64,000 bases of DNA from Escherichia coli (lineage in GTDB: Bacteria; Pseudomonadota; Gammaproteobacteria; Enterobacterales; Enterobacteriaceae): NCBI RefSeq assembly GCF_009931435.1, contig NZ_CP043414.1; one strand, written 5' to 3'. Made by a program: the position numbers and the translations under genes. Positions within the stretch are counted from its first letter, which is position 1. The number at the start of each line of letters is the position of its first letter. The notes under the pieces were generated by a model, which was not told the origin of the DNA, ran no database searches, and saw only the letters and a list, made by a program, of their open reading frames with translations. Positions 5,139-40,466 of this stretch are shown here, piece by piece.

Positions 5139-5154
5139 AGTTTTACTCAGACAT

Positions 5155-5260: not shown

Positions 5261-5506
5261 AAGTTAAATATAACTTTTACTGGAAATAAGATCAGCCATT
5301 TTTTTATAAACATAAGCTATACGCTGTGTGAAAATATATTGGTGTTGCATTTACTTATTATCAATTAACTGTTATGCAAAACTACTTTGTGGATAAATTT
5401 TGGTCCTACCAAATATGGCAGTTTTTGCACTAAGAAACAGTCTGGCGTCATTTCATTAGTATACTGAAATTGAAATAATCGCAGTAATGAAATATAAGGG
5501 ATAGTC

Positions 5507-10893: not shown

Positions 10894-11231
10894 TTTAGTC
10901 CCTGAAAATTCTTGAGATATAACGGTTCTTTAAATTGCGCGCGAGGAGAGGTATGAGGGATTTACAGACCAGCGGCATAGTGGGGTTGTCAGCCAGTAAG
11001 ATGGGATGCAAGCACAGTGATCGACATGGTGAGGTCAACGACAAAAAAAATGTTGCCGTTCTGCCAACAGTTCCTGCCAGCATTCGGGCAACGAAGGGTT
11101 CTACTGGTGGATACACATACCAGGGGAATAAAGTCGTTTTCGCCTCTCCTTTAGTCATCACCGGGGATAATGAAATCAGCATCTGCATCCCTCTTCATGC
11201 CTGCCATCATTTTCAGTTAATTATGTCCTGA

Positions 11232-20177: not shown

Positions 20178-20814
20178 GAGTTATATATGAAATACAACCG
20201 TCGATTCAATACGCAAGGCGTTACAAGCGTATTTATTTTTGATTTTTATCAAGATACTTCGTCAGCTAACGTTCTTGTTACCGACTAAATTTCAGCGCGG
20301 GAAAAAGCTGAGAACCCAGAGATATCGCGGCTTGCAGAGCAAAGAGAAGAGAAAATTATCACTGTTAACGACAAAGTTTAGTGATGAGGTCATGGGGGAA
20401 TAACCATAAAAACAAAGTGGTTTCCAGGGCGCAGGATAGGTTTCATAACCCCCTGTTTATTGTGTTAATGGCGGTTAAAAAAAAGCTTGATCATAAAAAA
20501 TTGATCGATAATAATTCTCATTATCACGTTCGCGCTTAACAAAACACGACCATATGGATAACAAAACCATAGCATTTGCAAGGGATAACGCACAGCGCTC
20601 TTCACTCCTGATGGGGCATATCGTTTTGCCTGATAAAGAGGGCGTGCTTTTGCGTATTTGCCGAGATACCAGGCAATTTCATGGGATATAAACGCCTGTA
20701 AACTCACCCGGCGAATATTATCGCTCTGAATTTTAAATAAATTTATTTCTCGCAAGCCACCCCGGTATTAACCCAGGCAGCCAGCATTTTTTATTTTCCT
20801 CATGGAGAATCGCT

Positions 20815-22797
20815 ATGTCACGTCCGCAATTTACCTCGTTGCGTTTGAGTTTGTTGGCTTTGGCTGTTTCTGCCACCTTGCCAACGTTTGCTTTTGCTAC
20901 TGAAACCATGACCGTTACGGCAACGGGGAATGCCCGTAGTTCCTTCGAAGCGCCTATGATGGTCAGCGTCATCGACACTTCCGCTCCTGAAAATCAAACG
21001 GCTACTTCAGCCACCGATCTGCTGCGTCATGTTCCTGGAATTACTCTTGATGGTACCGGACGAACCAACGGTCAGGATGTAAATATGCGTGGCTATGATC
21101 ATCGCGGCGTGCTGGTTCTTGTCGATGGTGTTCGCCAGGGAACGGATACCGGACACCTGAATGGTACTTTTCTCGATCCGGCGCTGATCAAGCGTGTTGA
21201 GATTGTTCGCGGACCTTCAGCATTACTGTATGGCAGTGGCGCGCTGGGTGGGGTGATCTCCTACGATACGGTCGATGCAAAAGATTTATTGCAGGAAGGA
21301 CAAAGTAGTGGTTTTCGTGTCTTTGGTACTGGTGGCACGGGGGACCATAGCCTGGGATTAGGCGCGAGCGCGTTTGGGCGAACTGAAAATCTGGATGGTA
21401 TTGTGGCCTGGTCCAGTCGCGATCGGGGTGATTTACGCCAGAGCAATGGTGAAACCGCGCCGAATGACGAGTCCATTAATAACATGCTGGCGAAAGGGAC
21501 CTGGCAAATTGATTCAGCCCAGTCTCTGAGCGGATTAGTGCGTTATTACAACAACGACGCGCGTGAACCAAAAAATCCGCAGACCGTTGAGGCTTCTGAA
21601 AACAGCAACCCGATGGTTGATCGTTCAACAATTCAACGCGATGCGCAGCTTTCTTATAAACTCGCCCCGCAGGGCAACGACTGGTTAAATGCAGATGCAA
21701 AAATTTACTGGTCGGAAGTCCGTATTAATGCGCAAAACACGGGGAGTTCCGGCGAGTATCGTGAACAGATAACAAAAGGAGCCAGGCTGGAGAACCGTTC
21801 CACTCTATTTGCCGACAGTTTCGCTTCTCACTTACTGACATATGGCGGTGAGTATTATCGTCAGGAACAACATCCGGGCGGCGCGACGACGGGCTTCCCG
21901 CAAGCAAAAATCGATTTTAGCTCCGGCTGGCTACAGGATGAGATCACCTTACGCGATCTGCCGATTACTCTGCTTGGCGGAACCCGCTATGACAGTTATC
22001 GCGGTAGCAGCGACGGCTACAAAGATGTTGATGCCGACAAATGGTCATCTCGTGCGGGGATGACTATCAACCCGACCAACTGGCTGATGTTATTTGGCTC
22101 ATATGCCCAGGCATTCCGCGCCCCGACGATGGGCGAAATGTATAACGATTCTAAGCACTTCTCGATTGGTCGCTTCTATACCAACTATTGGGTGCCAAAC
22201 CCGAACTTACGTCCGGAAACTAACGAAACTCAGGAGTACGGTTTTGGGCTGCGTTTTGATGACCTGATGTTGTCCAATGATGCCCTGGAATTTAAAGCCA
22301 GCTACTTTGATACCAAAGCGAAGGATTACATCTCCACGACTGTCGATTTCGCGGCGGCGACAACTATGTCGTATAACGTCCCGAACGCCAAAATCTGGGG
22401 CTGGGATGTGATGACGAAATATACCACTGATCTGTTTAGCCTTGATGTGGCCTATAACCGTACCCGCGGCAAAGACACCGATACCGGGGAATATATTTCC
22501 AGTATTAACCCGGATACCGTTACCAGCACCCTGAATATTCCGATCGCTCACAGTGGCTTCTCTGTTGGTTGGGTCGGTACGTTTGCCGATCGCTCAACAC
22601 ATATCAGCAGCAGTTACAGCAAACAACCTGGCTATGGTGTGAATGATTTCTACGTCAGTTATCAAGGGCAGCAGGCGCTCAAAGGTATGACCACTACTCT
22701 GGTATTGGGCAACGCCTTCGACAAAGAGTACTGGTCGCCGCAAGGCATCCCACAGGATGGTCGTAACGGAAAAATTTTCGTGAGTTATCAATGGTAA
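20815..22797 (+). CDS. chuA: TonB-dependent outer membrane heme/hemoglobin receptor ChuA
   Basis: 660 aa with signal peptide, plug and barrel domains, C-terminal aromatic residue (...VSYQW). Confidence 0.9.
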   Translation: MSRPQFTSLRLSLLALAVSATLPTFAFATETMTVTATGNARSSFEAPMMVSVIDTSAPENQTATSATDLLRHVPGITLDGTGRTNGQDVNMRGYDHRGVLVLVDGVRQGTDTGHLNGTFLDPALIKRVEIVRGPSALLYGSGALGGVISYDTVDAKDLLQEGQSSGFRVFGTGGTGDHSLGLGASAFGRTENLDGIVAWSSRDRGDLRQSNGETAPNDESINNMLAKGTWQIDSAQSLSGLVRYYNNDAREPKNPQTVEASENSNPMVDRSTIQRDAQLSYKLAPQGNDWLNADAKIYWSEVRINAQNTGSSGEYREQITKGARLENRSTLFADSFASHLLTYGGEYYRQEQHPGGATTGFPQAKIDFSSGWLQDEITLRDLPITLLGGTRYDSYRGSSDGYKDVDADKWSSRAGMTINPTNWLMLFGSYAQAFRAPTMGEMYNDSKHFSIGRFYTNYWVPNPNLRPETNETQEYGFGLRFDDLMLSNDALEFKASYFDTKAKDYISTTVDFAAATTMSYNVPNAKIWGWDVMTKYTTDLFSLDVAYNRTRGKDTDTGEYISSINPDTVTSTLNIPIAHSGFSVGWVGTFADRSTHISSSYSKQPGYGVNDFYVSYQGQQALKGMTTTLVLGNAFDKEYWSPQGIPQDGRNGKIFVSYQW

Positions 22798-22845
22798 TCA
22801 TCTGCCCCGATATTTCGGGGCATTTATCTGGAAGGAAGAGAGACA

Positions 22846-23874
22846 ATGAACCACTACACACGCTGGCTTGAGTTAAAAGAACAAAATCCCGGAAAGTACG
22901 CGCGTGACATCGCAGGTTTAATGAATATTAGCGAAGCAGAACTGGCATTTGCGCGCGTCACGCACGATGCGTGGCGGATGTGCGGCGATATCCGTGACAT
23001 TCTGGCGGCGCTCGAAAGTGTTGGCGAGACCAAATGTATTTGTCGTAATGAATATGCAGTCCATGAGCAAGTTGGTGCGTTCACAAACCAGCATTTAAAC
23101 GGACATGCCGGATTGATCCTCAATCCGCGCGCGCTGGATTTGCGTCTGTTTCTCAATCAATGGGCCAGTGTTTTCCACATCAAAGAAAATACGACTCGTG
23201 GCGAACGCCAGAGTATTCAGTTCTTTGATCATCAGGGCGATGCATTACTAAAAGTTTATGCCACCGACAATACCGATATGGCGGCATGGAGTGAGCTTCT
23301 GGCACGGTTTATCACCGATGAGAATACGCCGCTTGAGTTAAAAGCCGTTGATGCGCCAGTTGTTCAAACGCGAGCCGATGCCAGTGTGGTCGAGCAAGAG
23401 TGGCGGGCGATGACCGACGTTCATCAGTTTTTTACGTTGCTCAAGCGCCACAACCTGACGCGCCAACAGGCGTTCAATTTGGTGGCAGATGATTTGGCCT
23501 GCAAAGTATCCAACAGTGCGTTGGCGCAAATTCTTGAATCTGCACAGCAGGATGGCAATGAAATCATGGTGTTTGTTGGCAACCGTGGCTGCGTACAGAT
23601 TTTCACTGGCGTGGTAGAAAAAGTGGTGCCAATGAAAGGTTGGCTGAATATTTTTAACCCGACGTTTACTCTTCATCTATTAGAAGAGAGCATTGCTGAA
23701 ACCTGGGTAACCCGTAAACCTGCTAGTGACGGTTATGTGACCAGTCTGGAATTGTTTGCCCATGATGGTACGCAGATAGCGCAACTTTATGGTCAACGTA
23801 CAGAAGGCGAACAGGAGCAAGCGCAATGGCGTAAGCAAATTGCTTCGCTGATACCGGAAGGCGTTACTGCATAA
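22846..23874 (+). CDS. chuS: Heme oxygenase / hemin-degrading protein ChuS
   Basis: 342 aa directly downstream of chuA. Confidence 0.85.
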   Translation: MNHYTRWLELKEQNPGKYARDIAGLMNISEAELAFARVTHDAWRMCGDIRDILAALESVGETKCICRNEYAVHEQVGAFTNQHLNGHAGLILNPRALDLRLFLNQWASVFHIKENTTRGERQSIQFFDHQGDALLKVYATDNTDMAAWSELLARFITDENTPLELKAVDAPVVQTRADASVVEQEWRAMTDVHQFFTLLKRHNLTRQQAFNLVADDLACKVSNSALAQILESAQQDGNEIMVFVGNRGCVQIFTGVVEKVVPMKGWLNIFNPTFTLHLLEESIAETWVTRKPASDGYVTSLELFAHDGTQIAQLYGQRTEGEQEQAQWRKQIASLIPEGVTA

Positions 23875-23934
23875 CGTATAATTAAAGGGAGGTCTGGCTA
23901 TTTATTGCTGGGCCTCTTTATATTAATCAATCGA

Positions 23935-24465
23935 TCACACCAGATAATCAATATGCTGATGGCGTACCAACTCATTGATCCGCTTAAGATTGAGGATCAT
24001 CATGATATTGTGTTTATGGCAGTAGAACGTTTTTAGCGATATTTTCAGTTTCTCCAGAATATCTTCCGTTGTCATTTGATTCGCAATGCAGCTCAGAACC
24101 TGATGCTGCTTGCGCGAAAGGGACACATCCGCTTCAGGCACAGAGCAGTAACTGCCATTGATGAGTGCGACAAAGTCGATGATGGTGATAGTTCGCGGAA
24201 CAAAGGTCACCGGTACTTTCCCCAGGCAGCGTTTAATATTAAAGGGAGAGAAAATAATCACATGGACAGGTTTTAATCGTTCAATCTGAGTGAGCAAATT
24301 AGAATGAAATACATTATTCATTAATGTATCAATAATGACGAAGGCATGCTGATGCAACATTACGTCGATCTCTTCTTCGTTCTGTATATGAACGACATTA
24401 CCTTTGCTCAGAATGTTTTTCATCGCAGTGAAGAACATCGTATCCCTGGTAATTATAAGAAACAT
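23935..24465 (-). CDS. dctR: LuxR-family regulator DctR (YhiF)
   Basis: 176 aa with C-terminal LuxR-type HTH; adjacent to slp. Confidence 0.8.
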   Translation of the reverse strand: MFLIITRDTMFFTAMKNILSKGNVVHIQNEEEIDVMLHQHAFVIIDTLMNNVFHSNLLTQIERLKPVHVIIFSPFNIKRCLGKVPVTFVPRTITIIDFVALINGSYCSVPEADVSLSRKQHQVLSCIANQMTTEDILEKLKISLKTFYCHKHNIMMILNLKRINELVRHQHIDYLV

Positions 24466-24620
24466 AACCGACTCCTGGTGCGGACATTAACTTTATAATC
24501 AGTTTGCCAAAGGTAATTAACAGGACAGGGCTTATAATAATAATAGTTAGCTGGCTGTGTATTAATTTAATGTAATGCATGATGCAGATGCTGAGAAAGC
24601 ATCTGCATCTCTCGGTGGTG

Positions 24621-25187
24621 TTATTTGACCAGCTCAGGTGTTACTTGACTCACCGCATTGGTGTAGTAAGGCGCGCCCCAGCCCGGTTCCGGCCAGAATG
24701 CACCATAGCCGTAATCCCACAGGTTATAGGTGGTATTAACCACTTCTCTCAAATGCCACACCTGGATTCCCTGCATATTCACTTCCAGGAAGTTATACGG
24801 GACTTTATTGATAAAGCCAGGTTGTTCACCCTGAATGGTACCGAGGATGGTAACAAAGTGATTACGATAGTTCACTGGATCAAGGAAGCCGCTTTGTCTG
24901 GCGAGCAGTCGGCCCTGATAGTTGGCTTCAATATCAGGCTTCGCATAGCTATCCAACGGTAATACAGCGATTTCTAACAACGTATCCGTTTTGCCATTGA
25001 TAACGTTGATAACCTTCCCGCCAAAGCGCGCTTGTTGACCAACATATAACCCCGGCTGGTTATGAACAGCAACAAAACTTTTTTGGATATCAGGTTGGTT
25101 ATTGCCTTTGATATTTTGCGGAATTGAACTACATGCGGCAAGCAAAAATGAAAGGCTGAGGATGAGTGCACCTTTTGTCATGTTCAT
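24621..25187 (-). CDS. slp: Outer membrane lipoprotein Slp
   Basis: 188 aa from MNMTKGALILSLSFLLAAC (lipobox LAAC). Confidence 0.82.
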   Translation of the reverse strand: MNMTKGALILSLSFLLAACSSIPQNIKGNNQPDIQKSFVAVHNQPGLYVGQQARFGGKVINVINGKTDTLLEIAVLPLDSYAKPDIEANYQGRLLARQSGFLDPVNYRNHFVTILGTIQGEQPGFINKVPYNFLEVNMQGIQVWHLREVVNTTYNLWDYGYGAFWPEPGWGAPYYTNAVSQVTPELVK

Positions 25188-25431
25188 GTTACTATCCTTA
25201 TCAACAAATATTAAAACCATAATAGATATTTCTTTATAGTTTTCATCTGATTCTGAGGCGATATGCCTGATAGTAACGTAAACCTGTCTGATGTTTATAT
25301 CCCTTCAATTCAATTTAGATAATTATGGGGCGTGACATGAGTATGACATCGCCCCATGATATTAGCGACATATTTTAAAAATACTTAAAATATATTTTTA
25401 TTCATTAGTTATAAAGTGCTAATGTTCAAAA

Positions 25432-26664
25432 TTATGGTATTATATTCTGGTAATGCTTCGATAAGCGAATTCTTTTACCAGTTGGTAATTTTATTTCCAC
25501 CCCGTAATTTATATCTTTTTCATTAGGTAGTGGCCTCTTTAAATAATGACTGTGCGATATTTTTTCGAGTTGAAGCGTCCTGTATTTAAAAGCATTGAAT
25601 TCATCTTTAGACATTGTTGCCCATTTTTTAATTTTATTGTATAGGTGGTCTGTCGTAACAATTTGAAGTTGCTCGTAACATTCCTTTTGGAATTCTTGCT
25701 GATATTTTAATATATCTTTAAATGTAAGGTTTTTTACCTTTGTCTTTAAAAGTTGTATTATCGTTGAAGCAATTTCAGATTTTGCTCGCAAAGATTCATC
25801 ATTTATAGTCAACAGTGTTGAAAACAATCCATCAATTTGTTTGTCAAGGTACTGATCATAGTTATGTAATTTTTGGATGGGATGTTTTTTATGTAAAAAA
25901 ATAGTATTTAATAAATTTGCGTCAGTGAAATCTATATTGAGCAAATCTTCATAATAAAATTTTGACAAGGTCAGAACGAGCCCTGACATGTCTTGTCCTG
26001 TCATATTGAAATTAATAAAGTCACATCCAGAAAATACATTCATCCTGTTTTCATTTTCACTATGCGCAACATACAATTTGGCCAGTTTCAGATACAAGCT
26101 TTGAATGTCTTTTATCTCAGATGGTAAGTCTGCTCGTTGCCCAGCGAAAATGTTATTATCTGAGCAAACAGTTTGGATGCTGAATGTTTTAGGGATTTCC
26201 TCTTCTATGAGAATTCTTGTTGTGATTGGTCTGTTGGGTGTTGGATTAACGACTACAATGATTTGACATTCAGAATCTTTATCTTCTTGGTATATAATTT
26301 TATTTATCTGATTAAATATTGTTTGCGTCTGTTGCGTGAGTGGCTTTGAATCTATCGATTCAATGTTATTAATAATATTCACAAGTTGATCTACAACTCG
26401 TGAATATTCTGCATCTGTAAATGGGGGGATTGTGTGGCACTCATTAATTTGTTGTGATTGTTTTTGCACAAAATATAATTGTTCAGGATGGTTTTCTTCA
26501 CCTGGGAATGAGAAATTAATGAGTTGTTTTTCGCTATTATCATAAGGGCGCTTTGAAGTCTCCGGGGCTTTAACATCATTAAATATTTTGTCAGTATTTA
26601 TAGTACAATTATAAATATCACCATTATATATATTTATTATACCAGGGGTAAAATCAATTGACAT
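25432..26664 (-). CDS. yhiS: Low-GC hypothetical protein (YhiS-like) with a pentapeptide-repeat-like segment
   Basis: 410 aa ORF, strongly AT-rich, flanked by long AT-rich intergenic regions; located between slp and arsC where yhiS lies in E. coli. Function unknown. Confidence 0.6.
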
Positions 26665-27185
26665 AACATTCCTTATTGATCATCTTTTTTGCAAAATTTT
26701 TAGTTAATATGATAATTAGAGATATGAAATGATTTCCTTCAATGCAGCTATAAATACGATGCGACATATCTTCCTGATATAATTATCTTTAACTTCCATT
26801 TTATTTCTATGTGGTAATGTTTGAGTATAAAAAGGCAGTGATAGTATCGTAAAATAATGCGCTAGCAACTATCAAAAAACGCTCATTTTAAAAGGTTATG
26901 ATATGCTTTGAAGGTGTATGAGGTGAAATTTTAGTGATCTTTTTTAAGTGTAGCAATAAAATTGGTTAAGCTGTATTGAAATTATTTAAAGAAGTGTTGC
27001 ATTAGTATCTGAAATTTTTCCTTTAAAAGGGAGGATGAGACAAAAATGCGCAGCTTCGGCGCTAAAAATTCTTTAGTTTGATTTTGTTAACTTTAAAATA
27101 GCATCTGAGTCATATAGCTATACCTAAAATAACCGTCATAAATGCCACTTAGCAAAACAGATGGCGAAGGAGCCACGAAGAACAA

Positions 27186-27209
27186 ATAAGGGGGCATATC
27201 CCCCTTTAG
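27186..27209 (-). terminator. Rho-independent terminator after arsC
   Basis: Minus-strand hairpin aagggggatatgccccctt followed by a U-rich tract. Confidence 0.6.
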
Positions 27210-27635
27210 TTATTTCAGGCGTTTACCCGCTTCATCAACCACTTTCTCGCCATCTTCCTTGGTGAACGCGCCTTGTTGCGCATCTGGCAGAATTTCCAGC
27301 ACGACTTCTGAAGGGCGGCACAGGCGAGTTCCCAGCGACGTCACTACAATCGGGCGATTAATCAGAATCGGGTGCTGAAGCATAAAGTCGATTAACCGAT
27401 CGTCAGTAAATTTATCTTCTGCAAGGCCCAGTTCCTCATACGGCTCAACGTTTTTACGCAACAGCGCACGAACGGAAATCCCCATATCGGCAATGAGCTT
27501 GACCAGTTCATCGCGCGTTGGCGGTGTTTCCAGATAATAGATAATGGTCGGTTCTGTACCGCTGTTGCGGATCATCTCCAGCGTATTACGCGACGTGCCG
27601 CAGGCCGGGTTGTGATAAATAGTAATGTTGCTCAT
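27210..27635 (-). CDS. arsC: Arsenate reductase (glutaredoxin-dependent)
   Basis: 141 aa, MSNITIYHNPACGTSRNTL (catalytic Cys12 motif). Confidence 0.92.
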   Translation of the reverse strand: MSNITIYHNPACGTSRNTLEMIRNSGTEPTIIYYLETPPTRDELVKLIADMGISVRALLRKNVEPYEELGLAEDKFTDDRLIDFMLQHPILINRPIVVTSLGTRLCRPSEVVLEILPDAQQGAFTKEDGEKVVDEAGKRLK

Positions 27636-27647
27636 ATCAGTATCTCA

Positions 27648-28937
27648 TTACGATGTGAAAGAGAGACGAAGCGCCAGCGCGGTAAGCGTCACAAACAGCA
27701 CCGGCAGGGTCATGATAATCCCTGTACGGAAGTAATATCCCCAGCTGATAGTCATATTCTTCTGCGAAAGTACGTGCAGCCAGAGTAGCGTTGCCAGGCT
27801 ACCAATCGGTGTAATTTTCGGCCCCAAATCGCAGCCAATCACGTTGGCATAAACCATCGCTTCTTTTATGACACCAGACGCCGTGCTGCCATCAATGGAC
27901 AACGCGCCAACCAGTACCGTCGGCATATTGTTCATAATAGAAGAGAGGAACGCAGTGAGGAATCCGGTACCGAGCGTCGCGGCCCACAGGCCGTTATCCG
28001 CCAGCACGTTGAGTACGTCAGAAAGATATTCCGTGAGTCCGGCATTGCGCAGGCCGTAAACCACCAGATACATGCCGAGCGAGAAGATGACAATCTGCCA
28101 GGGAGCACCGCGCAGCACTTTACCCGTATTAATCGCATGACCGCGTTTAGCGACGGCAAATAATATCAGCGCGCCTACTGCCGCAATGGCGCTTACCGGA
28201 ATGCCGAGCGGTTCCAGGACGAAAAATCCCACCAGCAGAAGCAGTAAAACAACCCAGCCAGTTTTGAACGTCGCAGGATCTTTAATCGCATCTGCGGGAG
28301 ATTTTAGCAGCGCCATGTCGTAGTTCTGCGGAATATCTTTGCGGAAATAGAGATGCAACATCACCAGGGTAGCCAGTATTGCAGCGATATCCACCGGCAC
28401 CATCACCGAGGCATATTCGCGAAAACCAAGGCCAAAGAAATCTGCTGAAACGATATTCACCAGGTTAGAGACAATAAGCGGCAGGCTGGCGGTATCGGCA
28501 ATGAATCCGGCCGCCATAACAAACGCCAGCGTAGTGCCTTTGCTGAACCCTAAAGCCAGCAGCATGGCGATGACAATCGGCGTCAAAATAAGCGCCGCGC
28601 CATCATTGGCAAACAGGGCCGCAACGGTAGCACCGAGCAGGACAATCCAGGTAAACAGCAAGCGACCGCGCCCATTGCCCCAGCGTGAGACGTGCAGCGC
28701 CGCCCATTCAAAAAAGCCGGACTCATCCAGCAGCAAGCTGATGATAATGACGGCTATAAACGCAGCCGTCGCGTTCCAGACGATATTCCACACCACCGGA
28801 ATATCGCCCGGATGGACCACGCCCGTCATTAATGCCAGTACCGCACCGAGCGTAGCACTCCAGCCGATACCTAAACCTTTCGGCTGCCAGATAACCAATA
28901 CGATGGTCAGGACAAAGATAGCGCCCGCCAGTAACAT
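27648..28937 (-). CDS. arsB: Arsenite/antimonite efflux pump ArsB
   Basis: About 429 aa polytopic membrane protein; start taken at [10 protein letters not shown]. Confidence 0.9.
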
Positions 28938-28991
28938 CATGCCTCCTGGATAAAACACATTCGAATATTCATATGTGTTTAGATAAATTTT

Positions 28992-29345
28992 TTAACTACA
29001 AATATTCTTACTGTCTGCGGAACAATTTTGTCTGGCGAGGTTACGGACAATCACCTGAACCTTTTCCTGTTCGCATCGCCAGGCCTGCTCAATAATTTTC
29101 GCCGCCCATGCTGGAATATGCGGCGATAAACGGTAATGAACCCACTTTCCTTGCTTGCGGTCCAGCAATAGCCCACTTTCACGCAGTAATGCCAGATGGC
29201 GGGAGATCTTGGGCTGCGACTGATCGAGGGCAGTGCAGAGATCGCAGACGCATAACTCACCCAGTTCGCTGAGCAGTAAAACGATGCCCAGACGGGTTTC
29301 ATCGGCAAGAATTTTGAAGAGTTGGATGGGTAACAGAAATGACAT
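28992..29345 (-). CDS. arsR: Arsenical resistance operon repressor ArsR
   Basis: 117 aa with the metal-binding ELCVCDLC motif and winged HTH. Confidence 0.92.
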   Translation of the reverse strand: MSFLLPIQLFKILADETRLGIVLLLSELGELCVCDLCTALDQSQPKISRHLALLRESGLLLDRKQGKWVHYRLSPHIPAWAAKIIEQAWRCEQEKVQVIVRNLARQNCSADSKNICS

Positions 29346-29496
29346 ATTACGCTCCTGATTGTTGCACTTAGTGTCTCTCTTCGAAGCGGATAAGTCAAAA
29401 ACATATATGACTTAACGAATATGTAAGTGTAGAGAAAGGTATAGGTGTGAATTAAGCGTTGGGTGTTCATTTGAAAGGAAGTCTGAATCAGGATGT

Positions 29497-29580
29497 AAAA
29501 AAACCGACTTTGCGTCGGTTTTTTACTCTTCAGCCAGAGTTGGTGGCTCTGGCTGGAGTGAGAATGCCCACATCTAACGG
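29497..29580 (-). ncRNA. agrA: agrA-like small RNA (dinQ-repeat unit 1)
   Basis: First copy of the repeated element ending, on the minus strand, in a hairpin (ccgacgcaaagtcgg) plus U-run; homologous to the dinQ leader. Boundaries and strand rest partly on remembered literature. Confidence 0.45.
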
Positions 29581-29729
29581 TTCAATACTATTAGCCAGTG
29601 GCTAACATTGCAAGCGTTAGCGATTTCTTCAGCTGGCGAAGGGACAGTTTGCTATACATGGTGGTGAAAGAGGATTGATATACTTTCATCGGGTCGCTGC
29701 CGTACCAAGCCTTGTCCGAATCCGGACGT

Positions 29730-29813
29730 AAAAAAACCGACTTCGCGTCGGTTTTTTTACTCTTCAGCCCAGAGTTGGTGGCTCTGGCTGGAGTGAGATA
29801 GCCATCATCTAAC
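29730..29813 (-). ncRNA. agrB: agrB-like antisense small RNA (dinQ-repeat unit 2)
   Basis: Second copy of the same repeat with a terminator hairpin (ccgacgcgaagtcgg) plus U-run on the minus strand. Confidence 0.45.
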
Positions 29814-30086
29814 ACATCAATGCTAATACCATACTGAAACCATTGCAAGGACATGCTGGTTTTATAACCCGCAAGTACTGTATGATTATCCAGTTGGCTC
29901 TGAGGCATTTTCACTCTGGCAATGCGCATAAACGCTTTCAAAGTCCTGATCAGTGGTACGGGTGGTGCCGTTAACTGATGCTCTGGCAGGAGTGAGATTG
30001 CCCACATCTAACAATGAGGCATGCGCCGTGACAGGCAGTGGATGAGTAAGCGGATGCATTCTCACTCCATCGCATGGAGAAAACGG

Positions 30087-30170
30087 GTGATTGATAAAGC
30101 AATCATCGTTCTTGGGGCGTTAATTGCGCTGCTGGAACTGATCCGCTTCCTGCTTCAGCTTCTGAACTGA
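30087..30170 (+). CDS. dinQ: DinQ, small hydrophobic type I toxin peptide
   Basis: 27-codon ORF encoding (V/M)IDKAIIVLGALIALLELIRFLLQLLN, single TM helix, in the arsR-gor intergenic region. Confidence 0.6.
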   Translation: MIDKAIIVLGALIALLELIRFLLQLLN

Positions 30171-30187
30171 TAGCGGAAACGTAACTA

Positions 30188-30220
30188 AGGGCAAAGAGCA
30201 CACCACTCTTTGCCCTTTAA
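30188..30220. terminator. Bidirectional hairpin between dinQ and gor
   Basis: agggcaaagag ... ctctttgccct followed by T-rich sequence; gor converges from the other side. Confidence 0.55.
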
Positions 30221-30223
30221 CAT

Positions 30224-31576
30224 TTAACGCATGGTAACGAACTCTTCTGCCGCCGTTGGGTGAATGGCGACGGTATTGTCGAAGTCTTTTTTGGTTGCGC
30301 CCATCTTCAGCGCCACTGCGAAGCCCTGCAACATTTCGTCCATACCAAAACCAATGCCGTGAATACCGACAATCTTCTCTTCTGGTCCAACGCACACCAG
30401 CTTCATGCGGCACGGCTGGCGGTGCGTGGTGACGGCGGTATACATCGCGGTGAAAGAGGATTTATACACTTTCACCTGATCGTCGCCGTACTGCTCGCGC
30501 GCCTGCGGCTCTGTTAAACCAACAGTACCAATCGGCGGATGACTGAAGACCACGGTCGGAATGTTGCTGTAATCCAGATGCTCATCCGGCTTGTTATTAA
30601 ACAGGCGTTCAGAGAGGCGGCGGCCTGCTGCAACTGCCACCGGTGTCAGTTCCACTGCGCCCGTGTTATCGCCCACCGCGTAAATACCTTCAACGTTGGT
30701 ATTTTGATATTTATCGACGACGATATAGCCTTTTTCGTTAGTTTTAACGCCAGCGGCTTCCAGGTTGATGTTGTCATTGGCAGGTTCGCGACCAATCGCC
30801 CAAATCAGGCAATCCACCGTTTCACTGCGACCATCTTCCAGCTCCAGCGTCAGGCTGCCATCGGCATTTTTCACTACCGCTTTCGGGATGGCGTTGGTGT
30901 GCAACTGCGGACCTTCGGCGTTCATCACTTCGACCAGCGTTTCAGAGAGCATCGGGTCGAAGCTGCGCAGCGGCGCATGTTTACGAACAAACAGATGCGT
31001 TTTCGCGCCGAGGCCGTTAATCACGCCCGCCAGTTCAACGGCAATGTAACCTGCGCCAACAACCGCCACGCGCTCTGGCAAAGCAGGCAGGGCGAAGAAG
31101 CCATCGGAATCAATACCGTATTCCACGCCCGGAATATCCGGGTGGCTCGGGCGACCGCCGGTGGCGATCAGGATATGATCGGCCGTGATGGTTTCGCCGT
31201 TTACTTCAATTGTTTTGGCATCAACGAAGCGGGCAAAGCCTTTGATTACATCAACGTTATTTTTACCGAGCACGTTTTCATAGGAGGTATGAATACGGTC
31301 GATATAGGCGGTACGGCTGGCGATCAACGTTTCCCAGTTGAACTTATTGATGGTGGTATCGAAACCATAATCCGGGCCGTACATGTGGATCGCTTCACGG
31401 ATTTGCGCCGCGTGCCACATCACTTTTTTCGGCACGCAGCCAACATTCACGCAGGTGCCGCCCAGTTCTTTGGCTTCAATCAGCGCGCATTTCTGACCGT
31501 ACATAGCCGCGCGGTTGATGGAGGCGATACCGCCGCTGCCGCCGCCGATGGCGATGTAATCATAGTGTTTAGTCAT
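30224..31576 (-). CDS. gor: Glutathione reductase
   Basis: 450 aa; redox-active disulfide motif [16 protein letters not shown] and NADPH Rossmann motifs. Confidence 0.95.
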
Positions 31577-31647
31577 GACATATTGTCCTTATCGTTGATT
31601 ACCGCGATTGTAGCGCGAGACGTAATAGGTGCCAGCGATGGCTGCAA

Positions 31648-32490
31648 TTACTCTGGCACGATCCAGCTTACGGTGGCATGCCCGGTGCCAGCCGGAACCA
31701 GTTTGCTGTGCAACCACGGCAACACGTTATTCATCTGCTGTTCCAGCTTCCACGGCGGGTTAATCACAATCATGCCGGAAGCGGTCATGCCACGGCGATC
31801 GCTGTCTGGCAGTACCGCCAGTTCAATTTGCATAATCTTGCGAATACCGGTCGCTTCCAGATCGTGGATCATGCGCTTGATTTGCTGACGCAGCACCACT
31901 GGATACCACAGCGCGTAGACGCCTGTGGCAAAACGTTTATACCCCTCGTTAATGCCGCTGACCACCGCCTGATAGTCGGTTTTCATTTCATACGGCGGGT
32001 CGATAAGGATTAAACCACGGCGAGAAACCGGCGGCAGCTTGGCTTTAAGCTGCTGGAAACCGTCGGCTTTTTCCACGCGCGCACGGCTGTCTTTCTGAAA
32101 TTCAGCACGCAGCAACGGGAAATCGCTCGGGTGCAGCTCGGTCAGTTGCAGACTGTCCTGTTCACGCAGTAACTGACGGGCAATCAACGGTGAACCGGGG
32201 TAGTAACGCAACTGACCGCTACGGTTGAAGTGTTTTACCACATTGATGTACGCCTCCAGCTCCGCAGGCAGATCGTCCTGCTGCCAGATACGGGCGATAC
32301 CTTCGAGATATTCGCCGGTACGCTCGGCATGTTCACTGCCTAACTGATAACGCCCCGCACCCGCGTGGGTATCCAGATAGAGAAACGGTTTATCTTTCTC
32401 TTTCAGTGACTCGATGATCAGGCTCTGAACGGTATGTTTAAGGACGTCGGCGTGGTTGCCAGCGTGAAAGCTGTGGCGATAACTGAGCAT
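31648..32490 (-). CDS. rlmJ: 23S rRNA m6A2030 methyltransferase RlmJ (YhiR)
   Basis: 280 aa from MLSYRHSFHAGNHADVLKH; conserved DPPY motif (LILIDPPYE). Confidence 0.82.
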   Translation of the reverse strand: MLSYRHSFHAGNHADVLKHTVQSLIIESLKEKDKPFLYLDTHAGAGRYQLGSEHAERTGEYLEGIARIWQQDDLPAELEAYINVVKHFNRSGQLRYYPGSPLIARQLLREQDSLQLTELHPSDFPLLRAEFQKDSRARVEKADGFQQLKAKLPPVSRRGLILIDPPYEMKTDYQAVVSGINEGYKRFATGVYALWYPVVLRQQIKRMIHDLEATGIRKIMQIELAVLPDSDRRGMTASGMIVINPPWKLEQQMNNVLPWLHSKLVPAGTGHATVSWIVPE

Positions 32491-32692
32491 GGGTAAAGGT
32501 GTTCCGGTAAGTAAAAATCGGCCCGTATTCGGGGCGCACAAAAGCCTATCAGGACAGTATACCGAAAAGAGGCCGTCGCCGCGAAAGCGTAACGTTTCTC
32601 ATTGAAATTCACTACACTTAACCCCATGCTACACACATTATGTAAAGCGCCTGTTGAGCGCTTCCTTAACCTCTTTAACCAGGACTGCGCTA

Positions 32693-34735
32693 ATGACGAA
32701 TCCGTTACTGACTCCCTTTGAATTGCCTCCGTTTTCTAAAATTCTCCCGGAACATGTCGTTCCAGCCGTGACGAAGGCATTGAATGACTGCCGCGAAAAT
32801 GTGGAGCGCGTAGTAGCGCAAGGGGCACCGTACACCTGGGAAAATCTCTGCCAGCCGCTGGCGGAAGTGGACGATGTGTTGGGGCGTATCTTCTCCCCGG
32901 TCAGCCACCTGAACTCGGTGAAAAATAGCCCGGAACTGCGTGAAGCGTACGAACAAACCCTGCCGCTGCTGTCGGAATACAGCACCTGGGTAGGGCAACA
33001 TGAGGGGCTGTATAAAGCGTACCGCGACCTGCGCGATGGCGATCATTACGCCACGCTGAATACGGCGCAGAAGAAAGCGGTTGATAACGCCCTGCGTGAT
33101 TTTGAACTCTCTGGCATCGGTCTGCCGAAAGAGAAACAGCAACGCTACGGCGAAATTGCTACCCGTCTTTCCGAGTTGGGCAACCAGTACAGCAACAACG
33201 TCCTTGATGCGACAATGGGCTGGACCAAACTCGTTACCGACGAAGCGGAACTGGCGGGTATGCCAGAAAGCGCGCTGGCGGCGGCAAAAGCCCAGGCCGA
33301 AGCGAAAGAACTGGAAGGCTACTTGCTGACGCTGGATATCCCAAGCTATTTGCCGGTAATGACCTACTGCGACAACCAGGCCTTGCGTGAAGAGATGTAT
33401 CGCGCTTACAGCACCCGCGCTTCCGATCAAGGCCCGAACGCCGGTAAGTGGGACAATAGCAAGGTGATGGAAGAGATCCTCGCTCTGCGTCACGAACTGG
33501 CGCAACTGCTGGGCTTTGAAAACTACGCCTTTAAATCTCTGGCTACCAAAATGGCGGAGAACCCGCAGCAGGTGCTTGATTTCTTAACCGATCTGGCAAA
33601 ACGCGCCCGTCCGCAGGGCGAAAAAGAGCTGGCGCAACTGCGCACTTTCGCCAAAGCCGAATTTGACGTCGATGAGTTGCAGCCGTGGGATATCGCATAC
33701 TACAGCGAAAAACAGAAACAGCACCTCTACAGCATCAGCGACGAACAGCTGCGTCCGTACTTCCCGGAAAACAAAGCGGTTAACGGCTTGTTTGAAGTGG
33801 TGAAACGTATTTACGGCATCACCGCTAAAGAGCGTAAAGATGTTGATGTCTGGCATCCGGATGTCCGTTTCTTCGAACTGTATGACGAGAACAACGAACT
33901 GCGCGGCAGCTTCTACCTCGACCTGTATGCCCGTGAAAACAAGCGCGGCGGGGCGTGGATGGATGACTGCGTAGGCCAGATGCGTAAAGCCGACGGTTCG
34001 CTGCAAAAACCGGTCGCGTACCTGACCTGTAACTTCAACCGCCCGGTGAATGGTAAACCAGCGCTGTTTACGCATGACGAAGTAATCACCCTGTTCCACG
34101 AGTTCGGTCATGGTCTGCATCATATGCTGACCCGCATCGAAACCGCCGGTGTGTCTGGTATCAGCGGGGTGCCGTGGGATGCGGTCGAACTGCCGAGCCA
34201 GTTTATGGAAAACTGGTGCTGGGAGCCGGAGGCGCTGGCGTTTATCTCCGGTCACTATGAAACCGGCGAACCGCTGCCGAAAGAGTTGCTGGATAAAATG
34301 CTGGCGGCGAAGAACTACCAGGCGGCGCTGTTTATTCTGCGCCAGCTGGAGTTCGGCCTGTTCGATTTCCGCCTCCATGCCGAGTTCCGCCCGGATCAGG
34401 GAGCGAAAATCCTCGAAACTCTGGCAGAAATCAAGAAACTGGTTGCCGTAGTACCGTCTCCATCCTGGGGCCGTTTCCCGCACGCTTTCAGCCATATTTT
34501 CGCCGGTGGTTATGCCGCAGGTTACTACAGCTACCTGTGGGCTGACGTACTGGCGGCAGATGCCTTCTCGCGCTTTGAGGAAGAGGGCATTTTCAACCGT
34601 GAAACCGGACAGTCGTTCCTCGACAACATTCTGAGCCGTGGCGGTTCAGAAGAGCCGATGGATCTGTTCAAACGCTTCCGTGGGCGTGAACCGCAACTGG
34701 ATGCGATGCTGGAGCATTACGGCATTAAGGGCTGA
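32693..34735 (+). CDS. prlC: Oligopeptidase A (M3 family zinc metallopeptidase)
   Basis: 680 aa from [19 protein letters not shown] zinc-binding motif ([11 protein letters not shown]). Confidence 0.92.
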
Positions 34736-34742
34736 TCATTCA

Positions 34743-35495
34743 GTGAAAATCTGTTTAATTGATGAAACAGGCGCCGGAGACGGCGCCTTATCTGTTCTGG
34801 CGGCCCGCTGGGGGCTGGAGCACGATGAAGACAACCTGATGGCGCTGGTGTTAACACCGGAGCATCTGGAACTGCGCAAGCGTGATGAGCCGAAGCTTGG
34901 TGGCATCTTTGTTGATTTTGTTGGCGGAGCGATGGCGCACCGTCGCAAATTCGGCGGTGGTCGCGGTGAGGCGGTGGCAAAAGCGGTGGGCATTAAAGGC
35001 GATTATTTGCCGGACGTAGTAGACGCTACCGCAGGCTTAGGTCGCGATGCCTTTGTGCTGGCTTCAGTCGGCTGCCGCGTGCGGATGCTGGAGCGTAATC
35101 CGGTGGTTGCTGCATTGCTCGACGACGGCCTGGCGCGTGGTTATGCGGATGCGGAAATCGGCGGCTGGTTGCAGGAGCGTTTGCAATTAATTCACGCTTC
35201 CAGCCTGACGGCGCTGACTGATATTACCCCGCGCCCGCAGGTGGTCTATCTCGACCCGATGTTCCCGCATAAGCAGAAAAGCGCGCTGGTGAAAAAAGAG
35301 ATGCGCGTGTTCCAGTCGCTGGTGGGGCCGGATCTCGACGCTGATGGATTGCTGGAGCCTGCACGCTTGCTGGCGACCAAACGCGTGGTGGTAAAGCGCC
35401 CGGACTACGCGCCGCCGCTGGCGAATGTCGCCACGCCAAACGCGGTTGTCACCAAAGGGCATCGCTTTGATATTTATGCAGGTACGCCGGTGTGA
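34743..35495 (+). CDS. rsmJ: 16S rRNA m2G1516 methyltransferase RsmJ (YhiQ)
   Basis: About 250 aa from GTG ([16 protein letters not shown]...), downstream of prlC. The ORF track's longer call overlaps the prlC 3' end. Confidence 0.8.
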
Positions 35496-35499
35496 AAGT

Positions 35500-35535
35500 A
35501 AAGCAGGGTAGTGTTATTGCTACCCTGTGTTCTGC
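35500..35535. terminator. Bidirectional hairpin between rsmJ and dtpB
   Basis: cagggtag tgttattg ctaccctg between convergent genes. Confidence 0.5.
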
Positions 35536-35543
35536 AAGAATAA

Positions 35544-37013
35544 TTAATGGCTTTCCGGCGTCGCAATCATGCGTTTCAGCCACGGCACCATCAGCAGCAT
35601 CACCACCGCAACGCCCAGCGTAACCAGGCCAATTTTACCAAACACGCTGGTATAGACGGGCAACGTCTCAAGCGGATCGGTAATGTTGTCTGGTACTGCG
35701 GTAAATGTTGCCACATAGCCGCCAAGCAAGAACGCGGCAGCTTGCGTCAGGAACCACATCCCGAGAATAAAGCCCATCAAATGCTGCGGCACCAGGGCAG
35801 CAATCATCGCCAGGCCAAGGGCACTAATAAACAGTTCACCTAAACTCTGGAATAAGTAAACCAGCACGATAAACCATGGTGATGTCAGCCCTTGTGCATC
35901 AGCAAACCACATTCCCGCAGCTGCAGCCGTCAAAAAGCCCAGCGAGCACATAAACATACCGAGAGTAAATTTCATCGGCATCGAGAGGTCTTTGCCTTTG
36001 TTACCCAAATGCGTGTAGATACCTGCCAGTATTGGGCTGGCGAGTACCACCCAGAACGGGTTAAGCGCCTGGAAGCTGACCGGGTTGATGGAAAAGCCGA
36101 GAATTTCATGATGCACGTTGTTGATGGCAAAGAAGTTCAGCGACGTTGGCATCTGGGCGTAGAGAATGTAAAACACCACCGCTTCGAGCATCAGAACAAA
36201 GGCGACAAACATTTTATTACGCCCGGTTTTATCCAGCTTGAATGCCTGACGAAAGAAGATGATGGTGACGACGATGGAGAGAACAATCAGCACTAGATTG
36301 GCGACTTCTACGTTGTGCATCAGCCATGCACAGACGAAGATCATCACCACGCTGCCAAGTAACACGTACAACAGTTTGCTGAAGCTCATCGGCTTGAAGT
36401 CGGGTTCAGAACCAATGTCTTTCACCATTCCGCGACAGGCGATGTAAACCAATAGCGCGATAATTAATCCCGCACCGCACAGGTTGTAGGTGACTGAATA
36501 GCCGAATCTATCAGCGATCACAGGGGCCAACGATAACGCTATCAACGAGCCGATATTGATCGACATATAGAACAGGGTGAATGCGCCATCAAGCCGTGGA
36601 TCTTTCGGCGGATAGCACTTCGAAAGCAAGCTGGCGGGGTTAGCTTTAAACAGGCCGTTACCGACAGCGATAGTGCCCAGGGCGATGAAAATCAGGTCAG
36701 GCTTAAGTAGCGACATCCCGGTCATGAAGTAGCCAATCGCCAGCACAAGCGCTCCAAGAACAATGGTGCGTTTGGTCCCCAGTAGGTGGTCGCCGACATA
36801 GCCGCCAATGGAGATGAGGCCATAGACCAGCGCAGCAAACGCACCAAAGGTGACAAAAGCCTGTTCTTGCGAGAATCCAAGCTGTTTAACGAAGAAAACC
36901 GCCAGTACGCCCTGCACGCCGTAGTAGCCGAATCGCTCCCATAACTCGACAAAAAAGATCATGAAAAATGGGCGAGGTTGCTGCAGCATCCCCATGGGTG
37001 TTGTTGTATTCAT
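35544..37013 (-). CDS. dtpB: Di/tripeptide:proton symporter DtpB (POT family)
   Basis: 489 aa polytopic MFS/POT transporter. Confidence 0.9.
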
Positions 37014-37271
37014 ATTTATTAACCTTCCAATACCATCCTGAAAAGTATGAACGCGTAAGGGATAACGCGCGAAAAAGTTTACATCTGTCAGAGATTCTTA
37101 ATATTGATGCGGTGAATAGATTAATACACTATTACAACAGAAAATAACCAGCTGATCACACTAATGATGGAAAATATGATGGTGTTAAATGTTGTATTGG
37201 CTGGGGATTTTGATTGCGTACGCAGATCGTAGGCCAGATAAGGCGTATACGCTGCATCAGGTAACAAGGCG

Positions 37272-37306
37272 CGCCAAAAAGCAAAACGCCCGCATATGCG
37301 GGCGTT
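37272..37306 (-). terminator. Rho-independent terminator of uspA
   Basis: Minus-strand hairpin aacgcccgcatatgcgggcgtt followed by ttgcttttt. Confidence 0.65.
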
Positions 37307-37330
37307 CAGGCACACGTCGTGGAGGGAAGA

Positions 37331-37765
37331 TTATTCTTCTTCGTCGCGCAGCGGAACAATCAGCATATCAACGTGAACGGTGTTGATCAGCTGACGTGCG
37401 GAAGACATTAGTTTGCTCCAGAAGTCCTGGTGGTGACCACAAACCACCAGATCCATATCGTATTTCTTGATTGCATCGACCAGAACCTGGCCCAGATCGC
37501 CGCTGCCGCTCAGGGTTTCAGTGATTGGGTAGCCTGCATTAGTGGAAAGCTCGGTCAGCGCATGATGTGTCTCTTCAGAGATGCGTTTCTGCATATCACC
37601 CAGATTCACATCAATAAGCCCGGTGTATAGGTCAGAGTAGTTTACATCTACGTGGATCAGAGAAACTTTCGCATTGTAGGGGCGAGCCATAGAGACTGCT
37701 TTCTCTACCAGAACTTTGCTTTCCGGGGAGAGATCGACCGCGATGAGAATGTGTTTATAAGCCAT
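37331..37765 (-). CDS. uspA: Universal stress protein A
   Basis: 144 aa, [24 protein letters not shown]... Confidence 0.92.
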
Positions 37766-38155
37766 AGTGTTACTCCTTCCATAAAGTTGTCGATGACTGG
37801 CCAGCTAGCGTTTCTTGTGCCGTTACGTCACCCGCGTCCTGCGAACTACGTGCGCGGGGCTAACCCAGCCGTAAAGATTCAGTGTTAAGACCATCCTTAC
37901 CTTATAGCGACCCGGATGATCCGTCAATCCGCCTTGCTTACCCGTTAGATAAACAAATTTTCGGCATGAATATATTGATAGTGGTTAACCTTCTGGAAAA
38001 AAAACAACCTGATCTCCTACACTATCTATAGAGCCGCTCGGATGTTGGTCACCACAAAAGCGGTTTCTCCAGGACCTGGTGTTAACTGATTGGCAGCGTA
38101 TCGGGAGCGGTAGCCCCGGGGTGGAACTCCGCGGGCAGGTCGCCGGGGAGGAGGT

Positions 38156-38491
38156 ATGATAAGCACCGTCGCATTATTTTGGGCTTTATGTGTCGTTTGC
38201 ATTGTTAACATGGCGCGCTATTTCTCATCACTACGCGCGTTGTTAGTGGTACTGCGTAACTGCGATCCATTGCTCTATCAATATGTTGATGGAGGGGGCT
38301 TTTTTACCTCACATGGCCAACCCAACAAACAGGTGCGTCTCGTTTGGTATATCTATGCCCAACGTTATCGCGATCATCACGATGATGAGTTTATTCGCCG
38401 CTGTGAGCGGGTGCGTCGGCAGTTTATTCTGACCAGCGCATTGTGTGGTCTGGTGGTGGTCAGTCTGATTGCATTGATGATTTGGCATTAA
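38156..38491 (+). CDS. uspB: Universal stress protein B (small inner membrane protein)
   Basis: 111 aa with two TM segments, divergent from uspA. Confidence 0.88.
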
Positions 38492-38565
38492 GCACTTCAG
38501 AAAAAATAACGCATAAAAAAAGCGGGCCAGCAAACTGACCCGCTCGAGACTGATTACAAACGCAA

Positions 38566-38690
38566 AATTGCCTGATGCGCTACGCTTATCAGGCCTACAT
38601 AATCTCTGCAATCTATTGAATTTGCATGTTTTTGTAGGCTGGATAAGGCGTTCACGCCGCATCCGGCATGAACAAAGCGCACTATGTCAA
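38566..38690. repeat. REP/BIME-type extragenic palindromic element
   Basis: gcctgatgcgctacgcttatcaggcctac ... gtaggctggataaggcgttcacgccgcatccggcatg are classic E. coli REP palindromes. Confidence 0.7.
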
Positions 38691-38735
38691 CAATCTGAAG
38701 CGGGCCAGCTGACCCGCTCGTTTTGGTGCGTGCGA

Positions 38736-40235: not shown

Positions 40236-40466
40236 AGGACGTTACGCCATTTTGAGGACATGAACGCGGCGCATTATCAGTGACTTTCGCGGCGCGGGCA
40301 AAGTGAAATATAGACTTTTTTTGATTTGCCTCCTGTATAGATTGCACTCAAAAAATAATTATCTTATATAATTCAGGCAAATACTTCCTTTTAGTAATAT
40401 TGATGCTGGTGCGACCACTGAGGAATCTTTACAATTCACGCCCGTTTTTTCTTAGAGGAGCGCAAC

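Follow-up and report, generated by a model that had tools for sequence, protein, structure and literature searches.

yhiS, an AT-rich orphan gene between arsC and slp in Escherichia, is held open by selection, exchanged as a cassette and repeatedly lost

A stretch of 64,000 nucleotides from contig NZ_CP043414.1 (RefSeq assembly GCF_009931435.1, listed as Escherichia coli), called the window throughout, carries between arsC and slp an open reading frame (ORF) of 410 amino acids that by its position is the orthologue of yhiS. The gene is real, selection has kept it open, and on the evidence of sequence searches its family is an orphan restricted to Escherichia and Shigella. The part of the protein under the strongest constraint contains a genuine block of pentapeptide repeats that Pfam does not annotate. 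Together with about 400 bp of upstream DNA the gene forms a hyper-divergent cassette that is exchanged by homologous recombination in conserved flanks, and comparison of complete genomes shows that it is dispensable and repeatedly lost. Maintenance by selection, the unannotated repeat segment in the constrained core, cassette swapping and recurrent loss are newly recorded for yhiS; nothing here overturns current understanding.

Identity and distribution of the gene

25432-26664, minus strand: yhiS coding sequence, most likely the cryptic clade I allele, intact (ORF list, homologues and the ratio of nonsynonymous to synonymous substitution rates, dN/dS)

The ORF begins with ATG and ends with TAA. 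Other YhiS alleles align with the window protein over 100% of its length at 60-72% amino acid identity (E = 1e-150 to 1e-182), and one of them (P0022) bears the UniRef name YhiS. The gene occupies the same place, between arsC (or an arsP module) and slp, in the window and at every adequately flanked locus. These include a K-12-type strain, where two yhiS pseudogene halves split by IS5 are found at the site. The GC content is 0.26-0.35 over positions 25250-27199 compared with about 0.45-0.58 in slp, arsC and arsB, and the ORF itself has a GC content of about 0.30 against about 0.50 in the neighbouring genes. With the arsC stop codon at 27210, the gap between yhiS and arsC measures 545 bp. A sequence-only reading of this stretch had described an intact, AT-rich, yhiS-like gene with an AT-rich upstream region of this length, and all of these points are borne out by the comparison with other genomes; the upstream region (GC 0.31) proves to be composite. 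The gene is part of the chromosomal backbone running from the ars operon to slp-dctR, outside any prophage or pathogenicity island, and no integrase, tRNA or phage genes adjoin it. Its product of about 47 kDa, with a maximum 19-residue hydropathy of 0.84, is presumably soluble and cytoplasmic, without a signal peptide or membrane segment.

The exact 410-residue protein is recorded as 'MULTISPECIES [Escherichia]', and the named homologues returned by protein searches come from Escherichia and Shigella only (60-98% identity). Searched with a HMMER profile, 1.84 billion representative proteins yield one full-length YhiS cluster along with gene fragments. Neither a YhiS peptide pattern nor a conserved 26-nt pattern at the start of the gene has a match among 100,044 species-representative genomes, in searches sensitive to exact patterns only. 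The 26-nt pattern matches nine of the ten loci fetched up to that point, the exception being a remnant (L005) from a B2 uropathogenic E. coli (UPEC) genome; the genome scan is therefore valid, within the limits of an exact pattern.

The literature on the gene is sparse. In K-12, yhiS (b3504, P37635) has been described only as an uncharacterised pseudogene (PMC8170033), and the EDL933 copy, Z4907, appears as an "unknown gene" bordering an island in a study of Shiga toxin-producing E. coli O121 (PMC9729726). Other K-12 papers treat yhiS as an uncharacterised gene or as the endpoint of a deletion, in some cases mediated by IS5. Neither deletion of yhiS nor its supply on a plasmid changes the minimum inhibitory concentration (MIC) of chlorhexidine in K-12. 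The K-12 and EDL933 genes share with the window gene the position between arsC and slp, the length class and a full-length alignment. The window allele differs from them in being intact at 410 codons, in belonging to clade I (most likely, as discussed below) and in its divergence, with 60-72% identity in protein and 76-79% in DNA; IS5 splits the K-12 copy, and a frameshift shortens that of O157:H7 to 371 amino acids.

Selection on the coding sequence

25765-26217, minus strand: constrained core, about codons 150-300 (sliding-window dN/dS 0.08-0.38)
26670-26674, minus strand: Shine-Dalgarno sequence AAGGA, 5 nt 5' of the ATG, invariant across all alleles

Intact yhiS alleles that differ at 122-280 sites contain no premature stop codon. 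In a neutral simulation where the observed substitutions were placed at random (5000 trials), five to ten such stops are expected, and a stop-free outcome has a probability of 0.004 in the shallowest pair and of 0 to 0.0002 in the three deepest comparisons. All indels among the intact alleles are in frame. Overall dN/dS is 0.25-0.58, falling within 0.05-0.29 inside clade I, and the core gives 0.08-0.27 in two comparisons involving the window allele. Taken together, the lack of stops, the in-frame indels and the dN/dS values show that yhiS is maintained as a coding sequence. The repeat block described below is among the most constrained parts of the gene, with dN/dS of 0.10-0.27 in six comparisons with the window allele or L002. 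Codons 40-80, 110-150 and 320-370 give values of 0.6-1.7 in noisy windows of 40 codons, local values reaching 1.1-1.7 in codons 320-370 and about 1 in the other two segments. The Shine-Dalgarno sequence and the upstream blocks are more conserved than the coding sequence.

The start of the gene shows little variation. The first 60 nt contain only nine variable positions among alleles that are otherwise 21-24% diverged, 14 of YhiS residues 1-19 are invariant, and low variation was also noted over positions 26662-26723 on the minus strand. This conserved region might serve translation initiation or encode an N-terminal signal.

A block of pentapeptide repeats in the constrained core

25888-26040, minus strand: pentapeptide-repeat block, residues 209-259, ten repeats, about 2.5 coils (profile search, hhalign, AlphaFold2 and Foldseek)

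The sequence-only reading had pointed to residues 211-255 of the ORF as having pentapeptide-repeat periodicity. Ten successive centre positions (211, 216 and so on to 256) are all F, M or L, a period-5 pattern that, judged from the sequence, exceeds chance. Nine of the ten centres are F, L or M in all 14 aligned alleles and seven are invariant; position 211 varies only between F and L and position 226 only between M and L, and position 221 has V in a single allele and M in the other 13. Outside its own family the YhiS profile matches only genuine pentapeptide-repeat proteins, and only at positions of about 204-277. More than 20 repeat proteins were found at E < 1e-3 in the search of 1.84 billion proteins, and all ten of the matched proteins that were scanned contain Pfam Pentapeptide domains. 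Residues 207-263 align by hhalign with two pentapeptide-repeat proteins at a probability of 92% (E about 6e-7), and a profile search of the Protein Data Bank (PDB) retrieves the thylakoid protein TL15 (3n90) as well as Rfr32 (2f3l, E = 0.007). A match to the Pfam Pentapeptide family below the cut-off recurs in 13 of the 14 alleles, and this is the sole family matched consistently. The weak matches to DUF3212, DUF2624, PyrI and others occur in just one to four of the 14 alleles and were rejected as noise.

Residues 209-259 are likely to form a quadrilateral beta-helix. In an AlphaFold2 (AF2) model of residues 196-272, built on an alignment that included the matched segments of repeat proteins, 41 residues have a predicted local distance difference test (pLDDT) score of at least 90 and beta-bridges recur every five residues. 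The best 50 PDB matches of this steered model in Foldseek are all repeat beta-helices, none of them significant (E at least 0.46). Since the model was guided by the added sequences, the fold is counted as likely and not as independently shown. The periodicity noted at the outset thus holds at the level of profiles and hhalign, and the beta-helix is modelled when relatives among repeat proteins are in the alignment.

The block resembles the proteins of PF00805 (such as Rfr32 2f3l, NP275 and HetL) in its tandem repeats with F, L or M at the centre. D or N precedes the centre in six of the ten repeats and the i-2 positions are degenerate. It differs from those proteins in being short and embedded in a protein of 410 residues, the rest of which has no detectable relatives.

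Exchange of gene and leader as a cassette

25200-27209, no strand assigned: hypervariable, exchangeable cassette of yhiS and its leader (drop in identity against strain 2020CK-00188)

Strain 2020CK-00188 matches the window at 99.5-100% identity over 22781-25180 and at an average of 99.5% in the alignment covering 27210-40577, whereas over 25200-27209 the identity is only 73-83%. The yhiS copy of this strain shares 99% identity with L016, a mainstream allele. The combination of matching flanks and a mainstream allele indicates that gene and leader have been exchanged as a unit, so that the cassette passes between mainstream E. coli and cryptic clade I. Conserved flanks around a divergent yhiS block are also seen against other E. 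coli, and mosaic patterns between allele classes are consistent with exchange.

The same strain also carries an extra arsP permease gene and a second arsR. An additional ArsP-type permease and a second ArsR/SmtB regulator lie between arsC and yhiS in many E. coli genomes (loci L002, L004, L006-L009 and L022, e.g., L022:4448-5853) and are absent from the window (about 27060-27209), N96, O157:H7 and K-12. Positions 27092-27149 of the window are weakly similar to the region at the 3' end of arsP (72% over 71 bp), a resemblance that hints at a deletion scar.

A rare allele, most likely of clade I

Among 5426 complete E. coli genomes the window allele occurs (at 99% identity) in one, strain N96; all other alleles are 76-79% identical to it in DNA. 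Across the neighbourhood, identity to other E. coli is 98.5-99.8% for slp, 97-99.8% for dctR, 97-98.6% for chuS and 95-97% for arsC, and it falls to 74-79% for yhiS and to 74-78% for the proximal 325-413 bp of the leader. Between the window and mainstream alleles yhiS has dS of about 0.6 and dN of about 0.2, compared with dS 0.19 and dN 0.001 for gor, dS 0.09-0.19 for arsC, and dS 0.01-0.07 and dN 0 for slp.

The carriers of the 410-residue allele have gor sequences 97.7-100% identical to that of the window and about 96% identical to mainstream E. coli, and one carrier, HH41S, has been typed as clade I (PMC6968650). Because of these gor identities and the typing of HH41S, the window most likely comes from Escherichia cryptic clade I and not from E. 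coli sensu stricto. Its allele is then most likely the clade I version of a gene whose rate of evolution is several times that of its neighbours, and the block 25200-27209 is a clade-informative locus. Long-term balancing selection was considered as the source of the rare allele and was downgraded, the carriers being clade I-like and gor itself about 4% diverged. The window copy of gor (30224-31576) is about 96% identical to that of 5417 of the 5426 complete genomes and 100% identical to that of one, 2020CK-00188.

Recurrent loss

25895-25901, minus strand: T7 homopolymer, intact in the window; slippage from T7 to T6 inactivates yhiS in other lineages
25560-25565, minus strand: A6 tract, at which the O157:H7 allele, with A7 shortened to A6, is frameshifted

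The state of the gene was followed in 40 complete genomes taken at even steps along the identity ranking, from a collection biased towards clinical and laboratory strains. Full-length, intact copies are present in 13 of them and full-length copies with a frameshift or nonsense codon in 12; in 11 the gene survives only as remnants, deleted or split by an insertion sequence (IS), and the state of four further full-length copies was left uncalled. The gene is thus inactivated in roughly 57-67% of the sampled genomes and intact in about 33-43%. Inactivation is of at least six independent kinds, and second hits have often accumulated later. In K-12 yhiS was lost by insertion of IS5, a deletion leaves about 130 codons in one B2/UPEC genome, and a +1 insertion and a nonsense codon are found elsewhere. 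Loss often proceeds by homopolymer slippage: eight alleles from two allele groups, out of 27 aligned, carry the 1-bp deletion from T7 to T6, and slippage from A7 to A6 cuts the O157:H7 product to 371 amino acids. The locus offers a tidy case for how silenced orphans are kept or discarded.

The leader, its promoter and silencing

26665-27209, minus strand: AT-rich intergenic leader, 545 bp, GC 0.31, composite (sequence and alignment of 12 loci)
27188-27206, minus strand: arsC intrinsic terminator (found by scan; 7-bp stem with 5 GC pairs and a T-rich tail)
26846-26875, minus strand: candidate yhiS promoter, -35 TTGATA, 18-nt spacer, -10 TACGAT (consensus scan)
26769-26785, minus strand: invariant 17-nt block TAATTATATCAGGAAGA (alignments, all allele classes)

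The leader consists of the arsC terminator, a lineage-specific part of about 130 bp and a part of about 340-400 bp common to all alleles. Its distal portion occurs in three different configurations among the 12 loci. The candidate promoter is situated in the best-conserved upstream block, TTGATAGTTG...TTTACGATACTATC, and the invariant block TAATTATATCAGGAAGA is probably the site of a regulatory protein, to judge from its conservation. The leader is 69% AT and contains 21 promoter-like sites, compared with 12 +/- 4 in shuffled sequences; a cluster of such sites on the minus strand spans 26956-26782.

In K-12 the arsC/yhiS intergenic region of 470 bp is one of 78 'promoter islands' that are bound by H-NS in all the chromatin immunoprecipitation (ChIP) datasets considered (PMC3661553), and yhiS is among the high-affinity StpA sites of a 2026 preprint (10.64898/2026.02.10.705075). 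The idea that the upstream region is an H-NS target, put forward from the sequence of the window, agrees with this literature on the K-12 counterpart. Silencing of the window allele is inferred from its AT-richness and its orthology with the K-12 gene. The window leader shares with the promoter islands of Panyukov and Ozoline (2013; PMC3661553) the AT-richness and the excess of promoter-like hexamers; it differs from the K-12 island in the distal 150-200 bp, which in K-12 contain an element resembling a repetitive extragenic palindrome (REP). Overexpression of YdeO does not induce yhiS (PMC4222967).

Other elements were sought in the leader. Rfam has no match between 25200 and 27260. A structured RNA was rejected, as the RNAalifold covariation term is positive and the 5' region of the window allele folds worse than its shuffles (z = +1.9). 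A 37-codon upstream ORF overlapping the yhiS start, read by eye, lacks its start in K-12-type alleles and has only eight codons elsewhere, and a 50-residue ORF starting with TTG (26716-26868) was likewise dismissed as an upstream ORF.

25325-25357, minus strand: stable GC-rich hairpin, candidate terminator, about 75 nt past the yhiS stop, with no U-tract

On the 3' side of yhiS a stretch of 141 nt folds at -29.8 kcal/mol (z = -3.4 against shuffles). The hairpin within 25325-25357 may terminate yhiS transcription or belong to the control region of slp.

What the protein may do

The explanation we favour, with confidence somewhat better than even, is that YhiS is a silenced, conditionally useful accessory protein whose repeat core binds a partner, encoded by a gene that evolves fast, is swapped between lineages and is often lost. 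H-NS and StpA, acting on the promoter-island leader and the AT-rich gene body, would normally silence expression. Once silencing is relieved, transcription would start about 180 nt upstream, in the conserved block resembling a promoter. The beta-helix of 2.5 coils, flanked by a central alpha/beta region on one side and a helical C-terminal region on the other, would then offer a rigid surface for binding proteins. A benefit confined to certain conditions would lead some lineages to keep yhiS under purifying selection and others to let it decay.

Several observations weigh against this explanation. The intact alleles have so far yielded no demonstrated transcript, protein, partner or function. 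In about 60% of complete genomes the gene is dead, so that any benefit must be weak or niche-specific. The elevated dS may stem in part from effects of mutation rate or codon bias. The H-NS evidence comes from K-12, in which the leader is about 75% identical and the gene is disrupted, and the high-affinity H-NS nucleation motif TCGATAAATT is not found in 26665-27209 with up to two mismatches; over the whole window the motif is not enriched (92 matches, 79 +/- 8 expected). As for the repeats, the Pfam Pentapeptide (PF00805) score is 14.1 bits (E = 0.037), under the cut-off of 20.2 bits. A full-length AF2 model built on a family-only alignment of 14 alleles is unreliable, with a mean pLDDT of 40 and no beta-helix, and the Foldseek TM-scores (template modelling scores) obtained with it, about 0.1, are meaningless. 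A beta-helix is modelled with confidence only once repeat-protein sequences are added to the alignment, which makes the modelling partly circular.

It is unlikely that yhiS is a relic without function, acquired horizontally long ago, then silenced, slowly decaying and only by chance still open in the window. The many independent kinds of inactivation with their secondary hits, the finding that only 13 of the 40 evenly sampled genomes were shown to be intact, a dN/dS that is high for a bacterial gene and the indifference of chlorhexidine MIC to yhiS in K-12 would all suit a relic. The complete lack of stops in intact alleles 122-280 substitutions apart, the low dN/dS of the core and within clade I, and the conservation of the promoter-like blocks and Shine-Dalgarno sequence argue against it.

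The sequence-only reading had linked the repeats to type III secreted effectors, and a rival explanation accordingly takes YhiS to be a substrate of the system encoded by the locus of enterocyte effacement (LEE) or of E. coli type III secretion system 2 (ETT2), with its beta-helix binding a host protein as in PipB2, EspX or NleL/SopA. Such effectors likewise have a repeat beta-helix within a larger protein. The AT-richness, the probable silencing by H-NS and the lack of a Sec signal would fit, as would an N-terminal region of about 80 residues modelled as disordered and the conservation of the first 19 residues, which are rich in Ile, Asn and Thr. Geometrically, the segment model fits best onto the beta-helix of NleL (3naw_A; root mean square deviation 1.5 A over 46 columns, 28% identity). 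The deletion in one B2/UPEC genome and the widespread attrition elsewhere also suit this explanation; the attrition resembles the pattern reported for ETT2. The NleL match, however, is not significant (E = 1.2) and was obtained with a model steered by repeat-protein sequences. No usable match to YhiS is found in NCBIfam, PADLOC or PHROGs, the PDB sequence search returns generic repeat proteins without SopA, NleL or PipB2, and YhiS shows neither a sequence relationship with the effector families nor a HECT-like or other effector domain. Comparison by hhalign with K-12 YjcF, which we take to be an EspX-type backbone protein, gives a probability of 2.9%; YjcF passes the Pfam Pentapeptide cut-off with E = 2e-22, and YhiS does not. 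The gene sits in the backbone and is present in commensal lineages without LEE, and no report of YhiS secretion was found in the literature searched. An effector role is thus improbable. What was envisaged as refuting it came out in two parts, since the gene is inactivated in the larger part of the sampled genomes and has no homology to effectors, and the repeat block itself is upheld.

A little less probable again is the wider proposal that YhiS is an unrecognised backbone-encoded type III substrate (ETT2 or LEE) or some other host-interaction factor, with its beta-helix on a eukaryotic target. If this were true, the decay of the gene and its deletion in B2/UPEC would mirror ETT2 attrition, and the fast codons 40-80, 110-150 and 320-370 would reflect diversification driven by the host.

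In K-12, yjcF (L021:35784-37076) is an isolated single-gene backbone island of about 31% GC encoding a pentapeptide-repeat protein of 430 amino acids. It resembles yhiS in genomic style, with no detectable sequence relationship. A yjbI pseudogene lies at L021:4704-6284, and both yjcF and yjbI are mentioned in the promoter-island paper.

As improbable as an effector is a conflict gene, that is, an anti-phage or anti-competitor sensor under diversifying selection, which would explain the deep alleles and the exchange of cassettes. A divergence far above that of the flanks, the mosaic alleles, the replacement of whole cassettes and the raised local dN/dS in the three fast segments could be read in this way, and accessory defence genes are typically laid out as single genes, AT-rich and silenced. 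The windows with dN/dS above 1, however, are just 40 codons long and noisy, and over the whole gene purifying selection prevails. A rate about 3-4 times that of gor, together with the depth of clade I, accounts for most of the divergence. PADLOC gives no match and PHROGs nothing meaningful, and the locus always holds the same gene, never alternative systems.

A DNA mimic protecting gyrase or topoisomerase in the manner of Qnr, MfpA, McbG and AlbG can be dismissed as very improbable: the segment model does superimpose on the Qnr, MfpA and AlbG folds among others, but those proteins consist almost wholly of a helix of at least eight coils and act as dimers, the YhiS block of about ten repeats (about 2.5 coils) is much too short for mimicry, and the other 360 residues are unrelated to them.

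Neighbouring genes and other features of the window

22846-23874, plus strand: chuS (ORF list)
23935-24465, minus strand: dctR (ORF list)
24621-25220, minus strand: slp ORF (ORF list)
27210-27635, minus strand: arsC (ORF list), followed by arsB and arsR

The window covers the acid-fitness-island neighbourhood of E. coli in reverse orientation. Rfam matches at gathering level include the shuA/chuA 5' untranslated region (UTR) thermoregulator ahead of chuA (20786-20817, plus strand) as well as GadY and the small RNAs (sRNAs) ES205 and ES036 (5150-5263, 11043-11114 and 38591-38631, all on the minus strand). Two full-length matches to the AgrB antisense RNA (90 bits each; 29495-29577 and 29728-29812, minus strand) adjoin the dinQ region between arsR and gor and represent the expected agrA/agrB pair. 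Further along, an ORF of 1399 amino acids on the minus strand (56149-60348), followed by short ORFs, may by its position be an Rhs-type element.

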